From Alkalispirochaeta sp. (GTDB lineage: Bacteria > Spirochaetota > Spirochaetia > DSM-27196 > Alkalispirochaetaceae): a DNA stretch of 64,000 bases. The position numbers and the translations under genes are program-made. Under the pieces are notes generated by a model. The model was not told the origin of the DNA, did not search any database, and worked only from the letters and a program-made list of their open reading frames with translations. Shown here piece after piece: positions 30,326-39,074 of the stretch. The stretch covers positions 320,001 through 384,000 of the forward strand of contig OZ271854.1 in NCBI GenBank assembly GCA_965601925.1. The letters run 5' to 3'. Position 1 is the stretch's first letter. Each line of letters starts with the position of its first letter.

Positions 30326-31741
30326 ATGGCAGAATCGGAGCGTTTCGAGGAGCAGCTTGCGGAGCTTCTCGAAGCACAAGCCCAACAGATAGAATCCGAG
30401 GTCATCCCGGAGCTTAAGCAGCAATTCCGCCAAATGCGGTCCAGCTTCGAGGCGATCCACAATGTACTGAGGAAGAAGGCTCTCCTCAAAGAGGACCCGT
30501 ACAACTATGAGGAACGAATTTCGGAACTCGATACTCCGTCGGACGATCCCTATCTCGACAGCGAAAAAGATGTACAACTCAGCACGAGACTGTCGCAATA
30601 TCACTCGCGCATCGAATATCTGACCGACTACTACGACTGTTCGATTGAAAATCTCGATCTGGTACGCCTCAAGGCGCTGACGAAGTTCATAAAGTACCTC
30701 AACTGGAGGAATCTTTCGGAAACCGCGACCCAGCCGACGACGCGGGGACTCGCGGAACAGATCATGAAGATCAAGCGATCGAGCGACGCCCTGTCGGTCA
30801 ATATCGTGAACGACGCGCACGAACAGCTCAATCGCGCGTCGGTCAAAATCAACAAGGCATTGAAGAAGATCGCGCGCTACCAACGGGAGTCGTACAAACT
30901 CGCGGTACGCACGACGATTTTGACCGAACCGTCGATACCCGCCGCGCCGGCGCCTGCGGAGATGGACAAGACGGCGCGCAAAATAAAATCGGCTTTTCCG
31001 CGCCTCCTTCCCGGTCGTCCGTTTGCGAGGGAGCTCATTTTCGAGATCTTCAGCGAGAACGCCGCCGACGGTGGAGAAGCGGCGAGACAGAACCTGCTCC
31101 ACGACCTCGCCGTGGAACGGGCGCCGGCGGAGGAAAAGCAGGCCGGGGCCGACCTCAAACCGATACTGCTCGACGCGGCGAAGGCCGTAGCCTCGTGTAG
31201 TCGTCCCTTCGAGGAGGGGGCGCGGAAACTAAGCGATAATGCGCTGGTCGTCGAGAATCGCAAACTCACGTTCGGTGAAATGCTGCGACGTATTTGGGAA
31301 CACATGCGGGGAAGGGATCGCGAAAGCCACGTCTACACCGTCGACTACCTGGATCAATCGACGAATGCGCGCCGAAGCGAGGACATTCATTTCGAAGAGT
31401 TCATCAATCTCGTCTCCCGAAGGGCGCGGATCTATAACGGCATCTTACGCAAGACGGGTAACGCGTGGAACAAGCTTTACGGCTCGTCGGAGGATGTCAT
31501 TCTCAACTTCGTCACCAAGGATATCCAGGACGCGTACGAGATCGTACGGCGCTTTGAGTCGCTGGATACCTTTTTTCGCGCCGAGGTGACTCGCGAGCAG
31601 CGCGCCCAACTTCGCGGGATCAACGTGGAGCTGACGACGATCAAGGACAACCTCGTGCGAGCCCGTAAAAAGGCGCATCAGTACGTCGCCAAGTCCGAGG
31701 AGATCGCACAACTCAAGAAACTGGGCATCACCGGGACGTAG
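30326..31741 (+). CDS. Hypothetical alpha-helical cytoplasmic protein
   Basis: Long ORF; ATG 30326 lies 6 nt after TTGCGG-17-TATCAT; no family recognised. Confidence 0.7.
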   Translation: MAESERFEEQLAELLEAQAQQIESEVIPELKQQFRQMRSSFEAIHNVLRKKALLKEDPYNYEERISELDTPSDDPYLDSEKDVQLSTRLSQYHSRIEYLTDYYDCSIENLDLVRLKALTKFIKYLNWRNLSETATQPTTRGLAEQIMKIKRSSDALSVNIVNDAHEQLNRASVKINKALKKIARYQRESYKLAVRTTILTEPSIPAAPAPAEMDKTARKIKSAFPRLLPGRPFARELIFEIFSENAADGGEAARQNLLHDLAVERAPAEEKQAGADLKPILLDAAKAVASCSRPFEEGARKLSDNALVVENRKLTFGEMLRRIWEHMRGRDRESHVYTVDYLDQSTNARRSEDIHFEEFINLVSRRARIYNGILRKTGNAWNKLYGSSEDVILNFVTKDIQDAYEIVRRFESLDTFFRAEVTREQRAQLRGINVELTTIKDNLVRARKKAHQYVAKSEEIAQLKKLGITGT

Positions 31742-31857
31742 CGGGCACGGCTCCCTCAGTGCGTCGCCAAGTCGATCCGTCGTCGCTCGGCAAGGCGATA
31801 TGTCGTGAACACCTCGGCAAAGTGTCGCCGCAGAAGACCGTCCATCGTTCCGTCTGC
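31266..31857 (+). repeat. Direct duplication, left copy (3' part of the 30326 gene plus 3' tip of the convergent SBP gene)
   Basis: Near-identical to 35283-35665 by manual alignment. Confidence 0.92.
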
Positions 31858-32617: not shown

Positions 32618-32648
32618 TTGACAACTGGGCGTTCTCGTATGATCATAC
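32618..32648 (+). promoter_or_regulatory. Putative promoter of the peptide gene with an overlapping palindrome
   Basis: TTGACA at 32618; perfect palindrome GTATGATCATAC at 32637-32648 over the -10 region; AT-rich sequence follows. Confidence 0.5.
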
Positions 32649-32722
32649 CATCGATACGAAAAAGTTAAGGTATATACTAAAAATATTCGGTAATATCTAT
32701 GTATCAATGCAGGAGGTTTCAG

Positions 32723-32869
32723 ATGAAGTGGCAAGGTTACAATGAGAAAGCGGCCGAGCGGATGAATGGATTTGTCGTCAGGATTATAAACAGTCGATCG
32801 ATCCTCGTCCTGATCGCATTGGCGGCGATGGTGGTGGTCGCTGCGGCAACCAACAAGTGGGGCGGTTAA
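32723..32869 (+). CDS. Small 48-aa peptide, putative signalling-peptide precursor (MKWQGYNEKAAERMNGFVVRIINSRSILVLIALAAMVVVAAATNKWGG)
   Basis: AGGAGG RBS at 32711-32716, 6 nt before the ATG; hydrophobic core and short polar tail; below the ORF-track size cutoff. Confidence 0.75.
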   Translation: MKWQGYNEKAAERMNGFVVRIINSRSILVLIALAAMVVVAAATNKWGG

Positions 32870-33049: not shown

Positions 33050-34333
33050 ATGAGCAGATGGGCGCGCATCTATATCGCCGCCGTGTGTTTCGGCAGCCTT
33101 GTAATACTCACTACCGGATCGATCGATCTCGATCTGAGACAAAATCTCGTGCCGATCATGCTTCTTACGGCGGCTTCGTTCCTCACTCAGGTTTACGAGC
33201 TTGAGATACTGCCCAAGTATCTATTCTCAACTCATATTGCGATAGCGACGACGGCGGCGTTCATCGGTGGAATGCCTCTTGCGATATGGGTCGTGGTTTT
33301 GTCCACGCTACCGGCGGAGATCCTCTTACGGTGGGACCATATCAATAGCAGCTTCGGCCGGTTTACCGCACCGGTCTTGTTCAACACCGGACAGGTGATC
33401 TTGAGCGTCGCCGCTGCAGCTACCGTTTTCGATGCGATGATCGATCTCATCCCGGCCGTAAATCATTCCTATTATGCGATGATTGCGTCCTTTCTGGCTT
33501 ACTTCTTCGCCAACAACTTCCTGGTTGCCGGTGTCATCGCATTGACCTCAGACGAACGATTTTTCAAGATCCTTCATTCCGGATTCAAGAATCTTTATTT
33601 GCAATTCCTCAACCTGGGAGTCTTGTCAATCCTTATGACTACCCTCTACAAGGTCTCTCCGGTAAACCTCGCGTTGGCCCTTGCTCCCCTCGCACTCGTA
33701 CACCACTCGACCCGCAACTACCTTCGGCTACGCCGTGAATCGCACCAAGCGTTCAAACGGATCACCGAGCTGTTGGCCGAACGGGATGAGTACACCGGTG
33801 CGCATTCCGACGAGGTGGAGGAGTTGGCGGTCAAGCTCGCGGGGGCGGCAGGGCTCACCGACGACGCGATCGAGGCTGTGCGAGCCGGCGCCGCCATTCA
33901 CGATATCGGTAAGATCGCGATACCCGACGCAATACTGAAAAAACAGGGTCCCCTCGATACTGAGGAGTTTGAGACGATGAAGCGACACACGATCATCGGC
34001 GCCGAAATCATCAAGGATCTCGATATCTACCGGAGCGTCGTGCCGATCGTTCGGCACGAACACGAACACTGGGACGGATCGGGCTATCCGGACGGGTTGG
34101 TTCGGGAGGCTATTCCGATCGGGGCGCGCATCGTCGCGGTTGCCGATGTGTACAGCGCGCTAAGGACCGAGCGAGCGTACCGACCTCCGCAAGGCAAACC
34201 GTTGAAGTACACACACAAAGAGGCGTGTCGCATACTGTCTGAGATGGCCGGAACGGTATTGGATCCACACTTCGTCGAGGTATTCCTTCGCGTCGTCGGT
34301 AACATGGTTCACGAAGAGACGGCGGGGGACTGA
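33050..34333 (+). CDS. Membrane-bound HD-GYP cyclic-dinucleotide phosphodiesterase with multi-TM sensor domain
   Basis: Several predicted TM helices in the first ~220 aa, then RDEYTGAHS, IHDIGK, HEHWDGSGYPDGL and ARIVAVAD. Confidence 0.9.
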   Translation: MSRWARIYIAAVCFGSLVILTTGSIDLDLRQNLVPIMLLTAASFLTQVYELEILPKYLFSTHIAIATTAAFIGGMPLAIWVVVLSTLPAEILLRWDHINSSFGRFTAPVLFNTGQVILSVAAAATVFDAMIDLIPAVNHSYYAMIASFLAYFFANNFLVAGVIALTSDERFFKILHSGFKNLYLQFLNLGVLSILMTTLYKVSPVNLALALAPLALVHHSTRNYLRLRRESHQAFKRITELLAERDEYTGAHSDEVEELAVKLAGAAGLTDDAIEAVRAGAAIHDIGKIAIPDAILKKQGPLDTEEFETMKRHTIIGAEIIKDLDIYRSVVPIVRHEHEHWDGSGYPDGLVREAIPIGARIVAVADVYSALRTERAYRPPQGKPLKYTHKEACRILSEMAGTVLDPHFVEVFLRVVGNMVHEETAGD

Positions 34334-34335
34334 TA

Positions 34336-34914
34336 GTGATCGCATTGTGGGGAATTGTTTTCGGGCTGTTGATCGGATTCATTCGCGGGGGAAAACTCAA
34401 TAATCTCGGAGCTACTCGGTTACGGGGACTCTCTATCGTCTTCGTGGCCCTTGCCGTTCAGCTCCTCATCTTCCCTACGCCGTGGTGGCCCGAACCACCG
34501 GTGTCGCGGGCGACGGGTGCATTGCACCTTGGTTCCTACGCTCTGATGGTGACGTTCCTCATATTGAACCGTCGGTATACTCCCTTCTGGGGTGTTGCCC
34601 TCGGTATGGCGATGAATCTTACCGTGATAGCGGTAAACGGCGGTTACATGCCCGCGGATTTAGACGCTTTGAGAGCCACCGGACAGTTGGGGACGGTTCG
34701 CAAGATTCTGGCGTCCGTCGATCAGACCTACGGTAACGTGGTCGCGATGAGCGAAGCGACGCGTTTGAATTTTCTCGGCGATTGGTTGGTGGTTCCCCCC
34801 TGGGTGCCATTTGCCGCGAGCTTCAGCCTGGGAGACGCAGTGTTGATGGTTAGCGCTGCTTGGCTCGTCCAAGCACTTATGTCTGATCGAGAACGACGGA
34901 ACGACGACGGTTGA
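34336..34914 (+). CDS. DUF5317 family membrane protein (LspA-like aspartyl peptidase by inference)
   Basis: G..RGG.L..L, Q, SY, N..VI..NGG.MP, L.FLGD and FS.GD motifs; starts 2 nt after the HD-GYP stop. Confidence 0.8.
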   Translation: MIALWGIVFGLLIGFIRGGKLNNLGATRLRGLSIVFVALAVQLLIFPTPWWPEPPVSRATGALHLGSYALMVTFLILNRRYTPFWGVALGMAMNLTVIAVNGGYMPADLDALRATGQLGTVRKILASVDQTYGNVVAMSEATRLNFLGDWLVVPPWVPFAASFSLGDAVLMVSAAWLVQALMSDRERRNDDG

Positions 34915-35282: not shown

Positions 35283-35665
35283 TCACGGTCGGTGATACGC
35301 CGCGACGTATTTGGAAACACATGCGGGGAAAGGATCGCGAAAGCCACGTCTACACCGTCGACTACCTGGATCAATCGACGAATGCGCGCCGAAGCGACTC
35401 GCGAGCAGCGAGCCCAACTTCGCGGGATCAACGTGGAGCTGACGACGATCAAGGACAACCTCGTGCGAGCCCGTAAAAAGGCGCATCAGTACGTCGCCAA
35501 GTCCGAGGAGATCGCACAACTCAAGAAACTGGGCATCACCGGGACGTAGCGGGCACGGCTCCCTTAGTGCGTCGCCAAGTCGATCCGTCGTCGCTCGGCA
35601 AGGCGATATGTCGTGAACACCTCGGCAAAGTGTCGCCGCAGAAGACGATCCATCGTTCCGTCCGC
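35283..35665 (+). repeat. Direct duplication, right copy (pseudogene fragment with a 209-bp internal deletion, plus the intact SBP 3' end)
   Basis: 35283-35397 matches 31266-31380 and 35398-35665 matches 31590-31857. Confidence 0.92.
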
Positions 35666-36382
35666 CGCGACCGCATGCAAGCCCCGTTCTATGGCTTGAA
35701 TGACGCAGGGCGAAACCTGGGGAGAAAAGTAGAACCGGAAATCGCGCGCGTATACCAAAAGCAGATTCGGCTCCACCTCGAGGTGGGGATAGTGCGGTGC
35801 CTCGGAAATCACCTCGGCGATGCCGCGCGGAAAATAGTCGATTCCGCGACCGCGATTGGCAACCATACCGAAGATATTGCGCGAGTCGGCCACCTCTACC
35901 ACGGAGAGACCGTTGACGTTCCATACCTGGGCGTCGTACCAGCCTTCACCTACGCCGGCCACAGCGTCGAGCGCTACGAGGTCGGCCACGGAACGGACGT
36001 CGCGATACCGCGCCGACTCGCCGCGCGGTATCAAAAACACGCGATGTCCGATCAAATTGTTGGTGACCGGCGCGTTAGCGACGCGATACGTACCGTTTCG
36101 CTCGACCGTCTCGACGTACCAATCGACGTCGATCAGATGGCCGGCTTCGAGTGCCGCCTGGCGCCGTAGCTGCGGAATATCGGGGATCGATTCGATCTCC
36201 AGACGAAGTCCCGCACGATCGGCCGCCGCGATGAGCAGTTCGTGATAATACCGATGGCCTTGATCCTCCGCACTCGGTACGCGCAGGGAGATCTGCGACT
36301 GAGCGTCCGTAACGGTGGCGAACAACATTAGTATAGCCCCCAATAGCGTGAGCCGATTGGGGACGACTCGAGATGCATGCAT
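35564..36382 (-). CDS. Periplasmic substrate-binding-fold protein
   Basis: Signal peptide followed by GEGWYD, GIDYFPRG and FYFS motifs typical of stand-alone SBP-like sensor partners. Confidence 0.75.
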   Translation of the reverse strand: MHASRVVPNRLTLLGAILMLFATVTDAQSQISLRVPSAEDQGHRYYHELLIAAADRAGLRLEIESIPDIPQLRRQAALEAGHLIDVDWYVETVERNGTYRVANAPVTNNLIGHRVFLIPRGESARYRDVRSVADLVALDAVAGVGEGWYDAQVWNVNGLSVVEVADSRNIFGMVANRGRGIDYFPRGIAEVISEAPHYPHLEVEPNLLLVYARDFRFYFSPQVSPCVIQAIERGLHAVAADGTMDRLLRRHFAEVFTTYRLAERRRIDLATH

Positions 36383-36509
36383 AAAGACGAATCCCCCATG
36401 AGAAGTGGTGACACTATCCTGTGTCGGATGGGCACGGGCCCGTAGTGTGCTCGCGCGCCGTTCGGACCGGATTGACGCCGCCGCACGGAATGGTACCACC
36501 GGCGGGACG

Positions 36510-38486
36510 TCATGGGCAGCCCACCGTCTGGTCGCGCGCCAACGCATCCAAGCAACGATCGAGCGTGTCGGGGCGATGGAGGTGATAGCCCTGGCCGAGC
36601 TCAAAACCGGCCTCCAGAACGAGCTGAACGTGTTCGCGCGATTCGATTCCCTCGGCGAGGGCGGGTATACGCAACGCGCGCGCCAAGCCGGCGATCGACT
36701 TCAACACATGCTTGGACGCCCAGTTGTCGGCGGCGCCGGACACGAAGTGGCGGTCGATTTTGATCATACCGAAGCGATAATCATTGAGCCTCCGGAGCGT
36801 CGAAGAGCCGGCCCCGAAGTCGTCTATAACGATAAGAAAGCCGAGTTCCTGTAACGCCCGTACGGCGGCGACGTAGGCGGTGGAGTCGTTCCCGACCGAT
36901 GTCTCGGTCAGTTCGAACCGCAAGCGCCGCGGTAACTCGGGTCGCTCCGCGATAAGCGCACGAATGTCGTCGACGAGACGCTCGCTCAACAACTGGACGG
37001 GACTGAGATTGACGTTGACGAAGACACCGCCGTCGGTTCGTGCCGCGTCGATTCGCGTGATCGCATCCGCCGCCTGCCGTACCGCCCACCACCCGAGGTT
37101 TAGGATCTCACCGTTCTCCTCAGCAATGGGGATAAACACCGACGGCGGAATCATTCCCAACTCGGGGTGGGACCAGCGCACCAACAATTCATATCCCACG
37201 ACGCGCCTGACGCGCAGATCGACGATCGCTTGATAGTGCGCCGACAGCTGGCTTCGATAATCCGTTCCGGACATCGCCTGCTCCAGCGCGGTCCGCAGGG
37301 AGTGCTCGTGCCGCGCGGCGTCGTCATACTCCGCTACGGCCGAGCCGTGGGGCATCCGTACGGTGGCGCGAAGCCCGGCGTCGGCCCGTTTGCGCGCCTC
37401 GTTAACCTCCATGTCGATCGGAAACGAGGCGACGGCGGCGCGAACCCGAATACGAAACGCGCCGGTACGAAGATGGATCGGTCGCTCCATCACTTCGATA
37501 AGTCGCGCCGCTCGGGCCCGCGCAGCCGTGAGACCATCCAACTGGGCGACGGCGAAGAACTTAAAACCGTATCCGCGTACCAAAACGGCGCACGAGGAGC
37601 CGAGATTGGTGCGCGCGCGGGCCGCGAGCACACGCAACAACTCGTCGATCAAGTGTGTGTCGAGGAGCGAAACGAGTTCCGCCACGTGTTCGACCGACAG
37701 GGCGATCATGAATCTCGAGTGCCGGGGATGAGCCTTGCTCTCCGCCGCCGGTACCGGAACCTCCTCGTTCAGCGCTCGCAACAGCGGCAATCCGGTCGCA
37801 TAGTCATAGTATGCTTGATACCGCAGTCGACTCTGATCGAGCTGGAGGGAGCGCAACTCGCGCATGAGCCGTACACGATTGCCGCGACGATCAACCCCGT
37901 TCATGATCTCCATGAGTACCGCCAGCAACCCGACGATCAGAACCAACTGGCCGACGTAGAGCAATACGCTACCGACGATCGCTCGACCTACCGCGTCTTC
38001 AATGGAGGAACGATTCAACAGCACCGTGGCGTGTCCTATCGTCCGGTCCTGCCAATAGATCGGGGCGCGATACACGAACTGAGCCAGCCGCCGATCGGCT
38101 ATCCAACTCGGGCGAGCGATCGGGTTGCCGCCGGACGAAAAGAATATCCGCACCCCCTCGGAGTCGTAGGTCGCGGTAATGCGGCCGTTTTCGGACACCA
38201 CGGCACGCTCGATCTCACGGAGATTCTCCATGGCCGCCACCGCCCGCCGCATACCCTCATCGGACAGCGTCCAGAGAGGCTCGGCGACCGCAGCGGCCAG
38301 TGCACGCGCGAGCCGATCTCCGGCTGCGTGCAACTCCGCCCGCTGCCGCCGAACGGAGATGATGCCGAACAACACGATCGCGACCAATGCCCCCAACGCT
38401 ACAACGATGACGTGCGGCCGCATCGTCGACAACGCCGAGGTACGCGCCTCAGTCGAAACGTCTATTCGCTTCATCATCGGCTTCAT
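36510..38486 (-). CDS. Membrane EAL-domain c-di-GMP phosphodiesterase with degenerate GGDEF domain
   Basis: Two TM helices; degenerate GGDEF (RGYGFKF); ELLVRW, FIPIAE, NLSP, ELTE, DDFGAG, IKID, EGIE and QGY motifs. Confidence 0.85.
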   Translation of the reverse strand: MKPMMKRIDVSTEARTSALSTMRPHVIVVALGALVAIVLFGIISVRRQRAELHAAGDRLARALAAAVAEPLWTLSDEGMRRAVAAMENLREIERAVVSENGRITATYDSEGVRIFFSSGGNPIARPSWIADRRLAQFVYRAPIYWQDRTIGHATVLLNRSSIEDAVGRAIVGSVLLYVGQLVLIVGLLAVLMEIMNGVDRRGNRVRLMRELRSLQLDQSRLRYQAYYDYATGLPLLRALNEEVPVPAAESKAHPRHSRFMIALSVEHVAELVSLLDTHLIDELLRVLAARARTNLGSSCAVLVRGYGFKFFAVAQLDGLTAARARAARLIEVMERPIHLRTGAFRIRVRAAVASFPIDMEVNEARKRADAGLRATVRMPHGSAVAEYDDAARHEHSLRTALEQAMSGTDYRSQLSAHYQAIVDLRVRRVVGYELLVRWSHPELGMIPPSVFIPIAEENGEILNLGWWAVRQAADAITRIDAARTDGGVFVNVNLSPVQLLSERLVDDIRALIAERPELPRRLRFELTETSVGNDSTAYVAAVRALQELGFLIVIDDFGAGSSTLRRLNDYRFGMIKIDRHFVSGAADNWASKHVLKSIAGLARALRIPALAEGIESREHVQLVLEAGFELGQGYHLHRPDTLDRCLDALARDQTVGCP

Positions 38487-39074
38487 CGGTGTACCGTAAG
38501 TCGATAGACAACGTCGGCGGCGTCCGACAGTCACTACACCGATCGGCGTGTGATATCAAGCTCACCGGCGTAGTCGGTAGATTTGCTCTTATTTCGATTA
38601 TCGTTTCCCTCGTCATCGCCGCCGTATCCGTGACGATTCGAAGCGCGGCGACATCTGAGAGCGCCCGCTCACGATCGTCTACCGCCCCGCTGCGTAACGA
38701 GGATGTACCGTTGTGTCGCAATACCTATACCCCTCCGGTCCGGCAATGCGCGGACTACGCTCATAATTCGCCGGTCGGCAGTGCTCCGTCGATCCGTGCA
38801 TCTGCGCCGAAGCATACAATACGAGGGTTCCGTACGATCGCCTGTAACTGTCTTGCCGGAAATTTGTCGGTACTTGCTCCGGCGCGTGCGTAGCAAAGCT
38901 CCGTATTGCACTGCGTAGGTATCGCGACGGTTTGCTCGTCGGTTCCGGTTGCGATACTATTACAGAAGGTCGGGCCGCGGTCTTCTCCTCCGATGACGGC
39001 AATATTAGAGCAGGGAGACACGAGAGGGTCTCGCTCGACACACTGCGTATCGGCACACGCCGATCTTTTTCGGG

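Follow-up and report, generated by a model that had tools for sequence, protein, structure and literature searches.

The window analysed here, a stretch of 64,000 nucleotides from a contig of Alkalispirochaeta sp., contains a short gene whose 48-residue product is a good candidate precursor for a new peptide signal in bacteria. Judged by its codons and its relatives, the frame is a real, conserved protein-coding gene. Comparison shows that it is inherited together with a MASE9-like membrane sensor and a DUF5317 membrane protein, and that its C-terminal tail is constrained. The cassette, arranged in the order peptide, MASE9-like/HD-GYP sensor and DUF5317 (Table 1), is undescribed and spans several phyla, and reading its peptide as a precursor is plausible on comparative grounds. 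That DUF5317 cuts the peptide at Ala42 and that the freed K-W tail is the ligand of the sensor is a proposal to which we give about an even chance.

Table 1. Coordinates of the peptide gene, its cassette and related features (positions in the window unless a locus is named).
Feature	Position	Strand	Remark
Direct repeat, left copy, 281 nt (TP0584-family gene 3' end and downstream DNA)	31577..31857	+	
Sigma-70-like promoter, TTGACA-17 nt-GATCAT	32618..32646	+	promoter-like site
Ribosome-binding site (RBS) AGGAGG	32711..32716	+	6 nt ahead of ATG
48-aa peptide gene, probable precursor	32723..32869	+	frame translated, stop present
Residues 1-25: conserved MKW-x-G start, positively charged amphipathic helix to invariant R25	32723..32797	+	predicted cytoplasmic
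Residues 27-42: hydrophobic helix ending in Ala42	32801..32848	+	Ala42 a candidate cleavage determinant
Residues 43-48: tail with invariant K45-W46	32849..32866	+	candidate mature signal
Membrane sensor, 427 aa: MASE9-like N-terminal domain and HD-GYP	33050..34333	+	HD_5 E 4e-33
DUF5317 membrane protein, candidate LspA-like aspartic peptidase	34336..34914	+	PF17248 E 9e-27
DUF5317 D149	34780-34782	+	
DUF5317 D167	34834-34836	+	
Direct repeat, right copy	35283..35665	+	35283-35397 vs 31266-31380 95%; 35385-35665 vs 31577-31857 98%
~215-220-aa ORF	L130 6864-7523		
~215-220-aa ORF	L132 6822-7478		
~215-220-aa ORF	L141 6620-7264		
~215-220-aa ORF	L139 6626-7270		

The gene was originally predicted as a signal peptide with a hexapeptide cargo, and much of its described shape was borne out. 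The frame translates as proposed and ends in a stop codon, and the AGGAGG stands at the expected distance from the ATG. Residues I27-A42, taken in the prediction for a 16-residue hydrophobic core followed by six residues, are the best hydrophobic window of that length in the peptide (mean KD 3.12). The N-region is charged as claimed, with a net charge of +2 to +3 over residues 1-26 in 10/10 spirochaete copies, but it is unusually long (26 residues) and strongly conserved over residues 2-14; residues 10-24 form an amphipathic helix. A K-W-x-G motif is seen at both ends of the peptide, at residues 2-5 (32723-32737) and 45-48 (32855-32866). The promoter-like site sits within an AT-rich stretch. 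The mechanical list of open reading frames takes an earlier in-frame ATG (32699), one without an RBS, as the start; in all 10 compared copies the RBS precedes the MKW start. No terminator-like site follows the peptide ORF in this genome, and terminator-like hairpins are visible by eye after the stop in some relatives (L013, L016).

Among 355 matches in the 5.05-Mb genome, namely small ORFs of 25-60 aa with a strong RBS (the peptide ORF being counted twice), the combination of RBS, h-region and short tail is unique to the peptide ORF. A tail rule asking for an RBS, a hydrophobic stretch and A/G-x-x-x-W near the stop selects this ORF alone on both strands of the same genome and a looser version without the Ala requirement selects seven, both rules having been written after the orthologues had been seen. 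The peptide has no named-family match among Pfam and NCBIfam profiles, where the best E values of 21 aligned members are 0.006-0.14 to unrelated families, and its nearest Atlas clusters are all unnamed.

Conservation within the spirochaetes supports a protein-coding gene. The peptide lies 1.5-1.9 kb upstream in nine of the ten DUF5317 loci of the same order, the tenth being cut by a contig end. Ten copies, the window's included, all have 48 codons, and pN is below pS in 45/45 pairs of them (0.03 vs 0.18 in the closest pair). Each is preceded by a TTGAC[AG] box 77-107 nt before the start and by a GGAGG- or GGGGG-type RBS. M1, K2, W3, G5, R25, A42, K45 and W46 are invariant, which agrees with the predicted conservation of the A..KW tail. 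The description of the peptide as almost entirely signal sequence does not hold: residues 2-14 reach a mean pairwise identity of 0.72, much like residues 42-48 (0.66) and far above the h-region (0.38). Frameshifts or stops in relatives were a foreseen objection to the original prediction, and 17 full-length matches of the order contain neither. The distribution in spirochaetes is patchy: in a survey of 99 genomes of the order, the peptide is found in 17 (a weak match in G011, E 9.5e-4 over residues 12-38, is left out as unconfirmed) and DUF5317 in 13, and 0/300 further genomes drawn from the spirochaete phylum carry the peptide.

The association with DUF5317 extends far beyond the spirochaetes. 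A peptide profile finds copies in 49/80 GTDB DUF5317 loci, as the suggested link to other DUF5317 hosts had implied, and the peptide-bearing loci are labelled Chloroflexota, Bipolaricaulota, Thermotogae, Actinomycetota and Caldisericaceae. Several Thermotogae- and Marinimicrobia-labelled records share the GTDB phylum of the Bipolaricaulota records and are counted with them as one phylum. The tail rule finds a peptide on the same strand in 42/80 independent DUF5317 loci and on the other strand in three, two of these being family members. The looser rule finds one in 40/80 genome loci and 31/80 metagenome loci, vs 2/55 LspA control loci. Although the looser rule asks for neither residue, 74 of its 77 distinct sequences have Ala at W-4 and 73 have K/R at W-1. 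The gene may lie upstream of DUF5317, downstream of it or on the opposite strand.

Of 55 full-flank loci, 25 have the peptide and a MASE9-like sensor, 15 have the peptide with no match to the sensor profile and 14 have neither, no peptide being found in these 14 even by loose search. In the remaining locus, L193, the sensor stands beside two tandem peptide copies that end in K-F, were missed by the profile and were found by eye, which places the peptide beside 26/26 MASE9-like sensors. The sensor output varies between HD-GYP, GGDEF/EAL and histidine kinase, and in Chloroflexales loci the peptide is followed by histidine kinases whose N-termini are MASE9-like; the output domain is interchangeable. 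In the phylum of genome G384 (184 genomes), the peptide is present in 111 and DUF5317 in 155, and a comparison of the two lists gives both genes in 109 of the 111 peptide-bearing genomes, with G537 having a partial DUF5317 match.

Seven Limnocylindria loci (L039, L057, L072, L099, L184, L201, L209) have two different tandem peptides beside a GGDEF/EAL or HD-GYP sensor, one ending in G-A-G-x-R-W and the other in E-A-G-x-R-W. Some Limnocylindria loci have the peptide and DUF5317 beside unrelated genes, and a DUF5317 paralogue of this group, often adjoining a DinB_2 gene, has the peptide without a sensor in some genomes (L154, L155, L178, L199) and neither in others (among the 14 loci lacking the peptide, e.g. 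L153). In Chloroflexales, an ORF of ~215-220 aa with no Pfam match directly follows DUF5317 and precedes the peptide and kinase (Table 1), and is a possible fourth component of the cassette.

The cassette in the window may have arrived from elsewhere. In a DUF5317 tree, which lacks four spirochaete loci (L015, L017, L020, L021), the spirochaete sequences group with the phylum of G384 with support of 100/97. The gene upstream of the cassette belongs to the TP0584 family, which agrees with a spirochaete host, as does the Spirochaetaceae label of a close DUF5317 homologue. Copies of the 3' end of that gene flank the cassette on both sides, the second copy lacking ~196 nt. The tree grouping and the flanking copies together suggest that the cassette here is an acquired island. 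The repeat is no plain assembly slip, because contig depth doubles over it; neither a joint nor an excised form was found in the contigs of three runs of one sample. Just to the right of the cassette lie genes for an EAL-domain membrane protein (36510-38534, minus strand) and a solute-binding-like protein (35567-36604, minus strand), a pair that is a second c-di-GMP-related module.

The N-terminal domain of the sensor scores 14.5 bits (E 0.033) against MASE9 (PF20972), below the cut-off of 24.3 bits, and is therefore termed MASE9-like. The protein keeps the HD, GYP and R-x-Y-R motifs, and its HHE motif reads EHE. This change of the first His to Glu is found in 18 of 23 aligned sensor proteins, in a clade of spirochaetes and Bipolaricaulota; the sensor is a putative phosphodiesterase, with catalysis likely. 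Most proteins of this clade also have another residue instead of the Asp located three positions beyond the last metal-ligand Asp. Thermotoga maritima TM1467 and Streptomyces venezuelae HdgA, both MASE9-HD-GYP phosphodiesterases, have the same domain order and differ from the sensor here in the EHE motif. MASE9 was defined without a ligand, and the preprint text of Galperin and Chou suggests ligand binding within the membrane (bioRxiv 2021.11.05.467447). The hdgA product is described in the accessible text as membrane-bound and without a developmental phenotype, possibly for want of an activating signal (PMC6205966). Neither the word peptide nor DUF5317 occurs in the main texts of these two papers.

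DUF5317 is a family of 6,490 clusters at 50% identity, with matches in Thermus thermophilus and Thermotoga maritima, two cultivable species, and a close homologue labelled Spirochaetaceae. Literature searches on DUF5317, PF17248 and the cassette as a whole, with most subscription papers outside their scope, found no paper. Residues G90, N94, N101, G103, P106, D149, S164, G166 and D167 are invariant in 209/209 aligned proteins, which are top profile matches and lean towards typical members, and N78 and Q42 almost never vary among them. By sequence, this invariant polar set is enzyme-like. Positive-inside counts place the loop of D149 and D167 outside, and loops 17-31 and 78-83 and the C-tail inside, so the aspartates are on the side where Ala42 would lie. 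In six cases (L174, L189, P0093, P0100, P0132, P0141), DUF5317 stands inside long open frames or proteins of 466-940 aa, which may be fusions.

The arrangement of these residues recalls LspA, the catalytic pair of which is given as Asp124 and Asp143 in the accessible part of PMC9360617. LspA is lipoprotein signal peptidase II (Pfam PF01252; PDB 5DIR, 6RYO/6RYP and 9EMZ). DUF5317 has G-x-x-x-N in a membrane helix followed by two outward aspartates, the second of which starts the last helix, and the aspartates are 18 residues apart in 179/201 motif matches, as against 14-22 residues in 27 LspA matches. The core model (residues 56-186) has a pLDDT of 95. In a search of 48,161 chains with this core, 6RYP (S. 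aureus LspA) ranks first (Z 5.9, rmsd 3.1, 87 residues) and 5DIR (P. aeruginosa LspA) fourth (Z 5.5, rmsd 2.5, 84 residues, 20% identity), with Z values that are below 8 and tied with those of unrelated helical proteins. Foldseek with the core model also lists 5DIR fourth (E 1.7), with TM 0.40-0.41 and E 1.7-2.0 for LspA. Because the aligned range ends at model residue 127 on residue 158 of 5DIR, D167 would superpose on Asp143 if the last helix runs on without a gap.

The differences from LspA are considerable. DUF5317 has an insert of ~40 residues before the first aspartate, an extra N-terminal helix and no D-R after G-x-x-x-N; the G-N-x-x-D-R motif is invariant in 38 LspA sequences, and DUF5317 keeps only its G and N. 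No significant sequence or whole-protein fold match to LspA exists. The whole-protein model returned no LspA and no convincing match, with nothing at E <= 0.001 in Foldseek, helical hairpins of Z <= 6.2 in the top 50 of a wide VIA search and Z < 5 in a second VIA look. Sequence searches of solved structures returned gentisate dioxygenase and uS9, both at E >= 0.095, and the Atlas gave no usable named match. PF01252 matches 5/58 DUF5317 members, at best with 15.6 bits (E 0.019) where the cut-off is 25 bits. An LspA profile exceeds 5 bits on 24/209 DUF5317 proteins vs 4 reversed and 1 shuffled, a weak signal from related sequences. HHalign against spirochaete LspA gives a probability of 8% in a non-catalytic register, and against a broader LspA set 5.6% and 2.4%, the D149/D167 register being the one at 2.4% and a different register scoring higher. 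We read DUF5317 as a protein that may work like LspA in its last two-thirds and is not a member of family A8. The host genome also has an LspA of its own.

A mechanism can be proposed on this basis. The peptide would insert in the manner of a signal peptide, with the N-terminus in and the C-terminus out. DUF5317, with its two outward aspartates in an LspA-like arrangement, would cut just before or just after Ala42 and free a 6-7-residue K-W tail at the periplasmic side of the inner membrane. The tail would then bind the MASE9-like domain and tune the HD-GYP domain and thereby c-di-GMP, with its variable residues acting as a genome-specific code. To act between cells, the tail would in addition have to cross the outer membrane.

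The h-region ends in S/A-G-A in many homologues, which resembles a lipobox (L-A/S-G/A-C in the text available of PMC9360617) with Ala in place of Cys. Cys is absent from 10/10 spirochaete copies that accompany DUF5317, and from the 8 residues before W in 77/77 sequences, which means that the peptide is not lipid-modified. The cut bond cannot be fixed because S/A-G-A fits a Cys-free lipobox and a small-x-Ala site alike; a cut before Ala, as in the former, would yield a 7-residue product, and a cut after it, as in the latter, a hexapeptide. Large residues precede Ala in the spirochaete copies and favour a cut after Ala there. Neither cut model accounts for the conserved K-W-x-G at the N-terminus, which mirrors that at the C-terminus.

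That N-terminus bears on the main rival explanation, which we consider less likely than the cut at Ala42: the peptide would be an uncut, MgrB-like single-helix membrane partner of the MASE9 sensor, its two K-W ends serving as anchors and contacts on both faces, and DUF5317 would be an accessory binding subunit or serve only in peptide turnover. Residues 2-14 match the tail in conservation, which argues against a disposable leader, since a leader needs no such conservation. Of 99 database homologues, 60 have an MKW-like start, with n-regions that vary widely in length; the Actinomycetota and Limnocylindria copies lack such a start. The binding of ligands within the membrane that Galperin and Chou suggest for MASE9 also fits an uncut partner, as do multi-copy small membrane proteins with additive effects, the C. 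difficile CD1980.2 family, for which the text available reports no cleavage. Against it stand the enzyme-like invariant polar residues of DUF5317 and the loci that have the peptide and DUF5317 without a nearby sensor (L154, L155, L178, L199).

Tandem arrays weigh further against an uncut partner. Twelve loci were fetched for multiple peptide matches, and ten, from a related phylum rather than from spirochaetes, gave two to six copies; the arrays were chosen for high copy number, and copies and pairs within an array are not independent. The three variable tail positions differ in 11/147 comparisons within arrays vs 84/135 between genomes (ratio 0.12), and the h-region in 115/686 vs 295/630 (ratio 0.36). 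The stretch ahead of the h-helix has drifted among the copies of an array (165/392; within/between ratio 0.68), and the tail has not. Tail codons within arrays show 41 synonymous vs 11 non-synonymous differences. As far as the sequences compared indicate, the tail is held constant among the copies of one genome and differs from genome to genome, a pattern that fits a ligand with a specificity code, whether released or tethered. Up to six peptide genes accompany a single sensor and DUF5317, as would befit a consumed substrate rather than a fixed subunit. Arrays of four to six genes spaced ~130-210 nt apart are seen in L292 (581-1750), L293, L294 and L297, and one copy in L297 has a different tail.

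Genomes that have lost DUF5317 bear on both readings. G001, G060 and G391 (91, 93 and 96% complete) keep the promoter box, RBS, peptide and an intact HD-GYP sensor, while DUF5317 is absent from locus and genome and unrelated genes follow the sensor. DUF5317 is therefore not indispensable, as an uncut partner would allow. In these three genomes and in G009 (the sister of G001; 81% complete, with a truncated locus), residue 42 is Ser and K-W is kept, whereas Ala42 is found in all 11 genomes with peptide and DUF5317, and also in G035 and G408, where contigs are cut. This change of Ala42 where DUF5317 is absent counts against an uncut partner. The four Ser42 genomes form two well-supported pairs, and a single origin is not rejected (p-AU 0.248), so that the Ala42-to-Ser changes may be one or two events. 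Residues 39-42 have a mean KD of 0.4-1.2 in the copies without DUF5317 vs 1.2-3.5 in ten with it. Exceptions occur: Glu stands at W-4 in L298 and L301, where the DUF5317 motifs are intact; Pro directly follows Ala in L181 and L188; and G578, a 1.2-Mb assembly, keeps Ala with no DUF5317 found, its relatives carrying DUF5317 on other contigs. These sequences are most simply explained if DUF5317 recognises Ala42 and the sensor recognises K-W. Together, the arrays and the co-variation of Ala42 with DUF5317 favour processing and give the precursor reading comparative support. The predicted pheromone-precursor architecture thus gains from the arrays, Ala42 and the core fold; release of the tail is a step that we infer, and survival of the peptide without DUF5317 tells against a plain pheromone.

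Cleavage at Ala42 could also serve as an off/on switch, in which the full-length tethered peptide regulates the sensor, removal of K-W ends the regulation and the tail is waste. This explanation is improbable, even though a single model would cover both the conserved N-terminus and the co-variation of Ala42 with DUF5317, and K-W retained in genomes without DUF5317 would be the permanently uncut form. The more polar residues 39-42 of those genomes also fit a housekeeping signal peptidase that releases the same tail, and a genome-specific tail is expected of a ligand read after release. A chance frame or a cis-acting leader such as an attenuator or RNA element, with the protein product irrelevant, is largely refuted and very improbable: the ORF does sit between promoter and operon and is followed by a hairpin in the two relatives named above, but its codons are under purifying selection, the same protein motif recurs in several phyla in all three positions relative to DUF5317, seven orthologous loci have no Rfam match at threshold, none over the ORF and no riboswitch, and folding is not unusual (z -0.26, 1.06, -0.03).

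The logic of the cassette is that of peptide signalling, and its parts are unrelated to those of known systems. Enterococcal sex pheromones, SHP/Rgg, Phr/Rap and PapR/PlcR are linear peptide pheromone systems. In another, staph-cAM373, the available text describes a precursor resembling a signal peptide that is cut via Eep and EcsAB (PMC7157817). The peptide here shares with such systems a short gene, a hydrophobic region, a short C-terminal cargo differing from genome to genome and a membrane peptidase. It has no sequence match to them; its receptor would be a MASE9-like domain in the membrane rather than a cytoplasmic RRNPP protein; the cassette lacks Eep, an exporter and an oligopeptide permease; and its output is c-di-GMP or a histidine kinase, in a diderm spirochaete host. 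MgrB, a small membrane regulator of sensor kinases as described in the accessible parts of PMC8404706 and PMC2789325, is similar in having ~47 residues and one membrane helix and in acting on a membrane sensor. It has no homology to the peptide. MgrB is not known to be accompanied by a dedicated peptidase-like gene or to have tandem arrays or a genome-specific tail. The small proteins of the C. difficile CD1980.2 family, as the available text describes them (58 aa, Cys46, no DUF5317), were judged not to be relatives.

With this comparison, MASE9 sensors gain a candidate ligand that can be put to the test, and DUF5317, with its thousands of clusters, gains a candidate substrate and catalytic pair that can be tested likewise. 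A wider proposal, which we put forward tentatively as a possibility, is that of a widespread peptide-signalling system in which DUF5317 proteins would be new LspA-like aspartic peptidases that need no lipid-modified Cys. A diffusing K/R-W peptide with a genome-specific code would be read by MASE9-like domains with HD-GYP, GGDEF/EAL or histidine-kinase outputs in Spirochaetota, Bipolaricaulota, Chloroflexota, Actinomycetota and Caldisericota. Should the cut prove real, the catalytic layout of LspA would have been reused for substrates that are not lipoproteins, and c-di-GMP would receive direct input from peptide signals in phyla with hardly any known examples of them.
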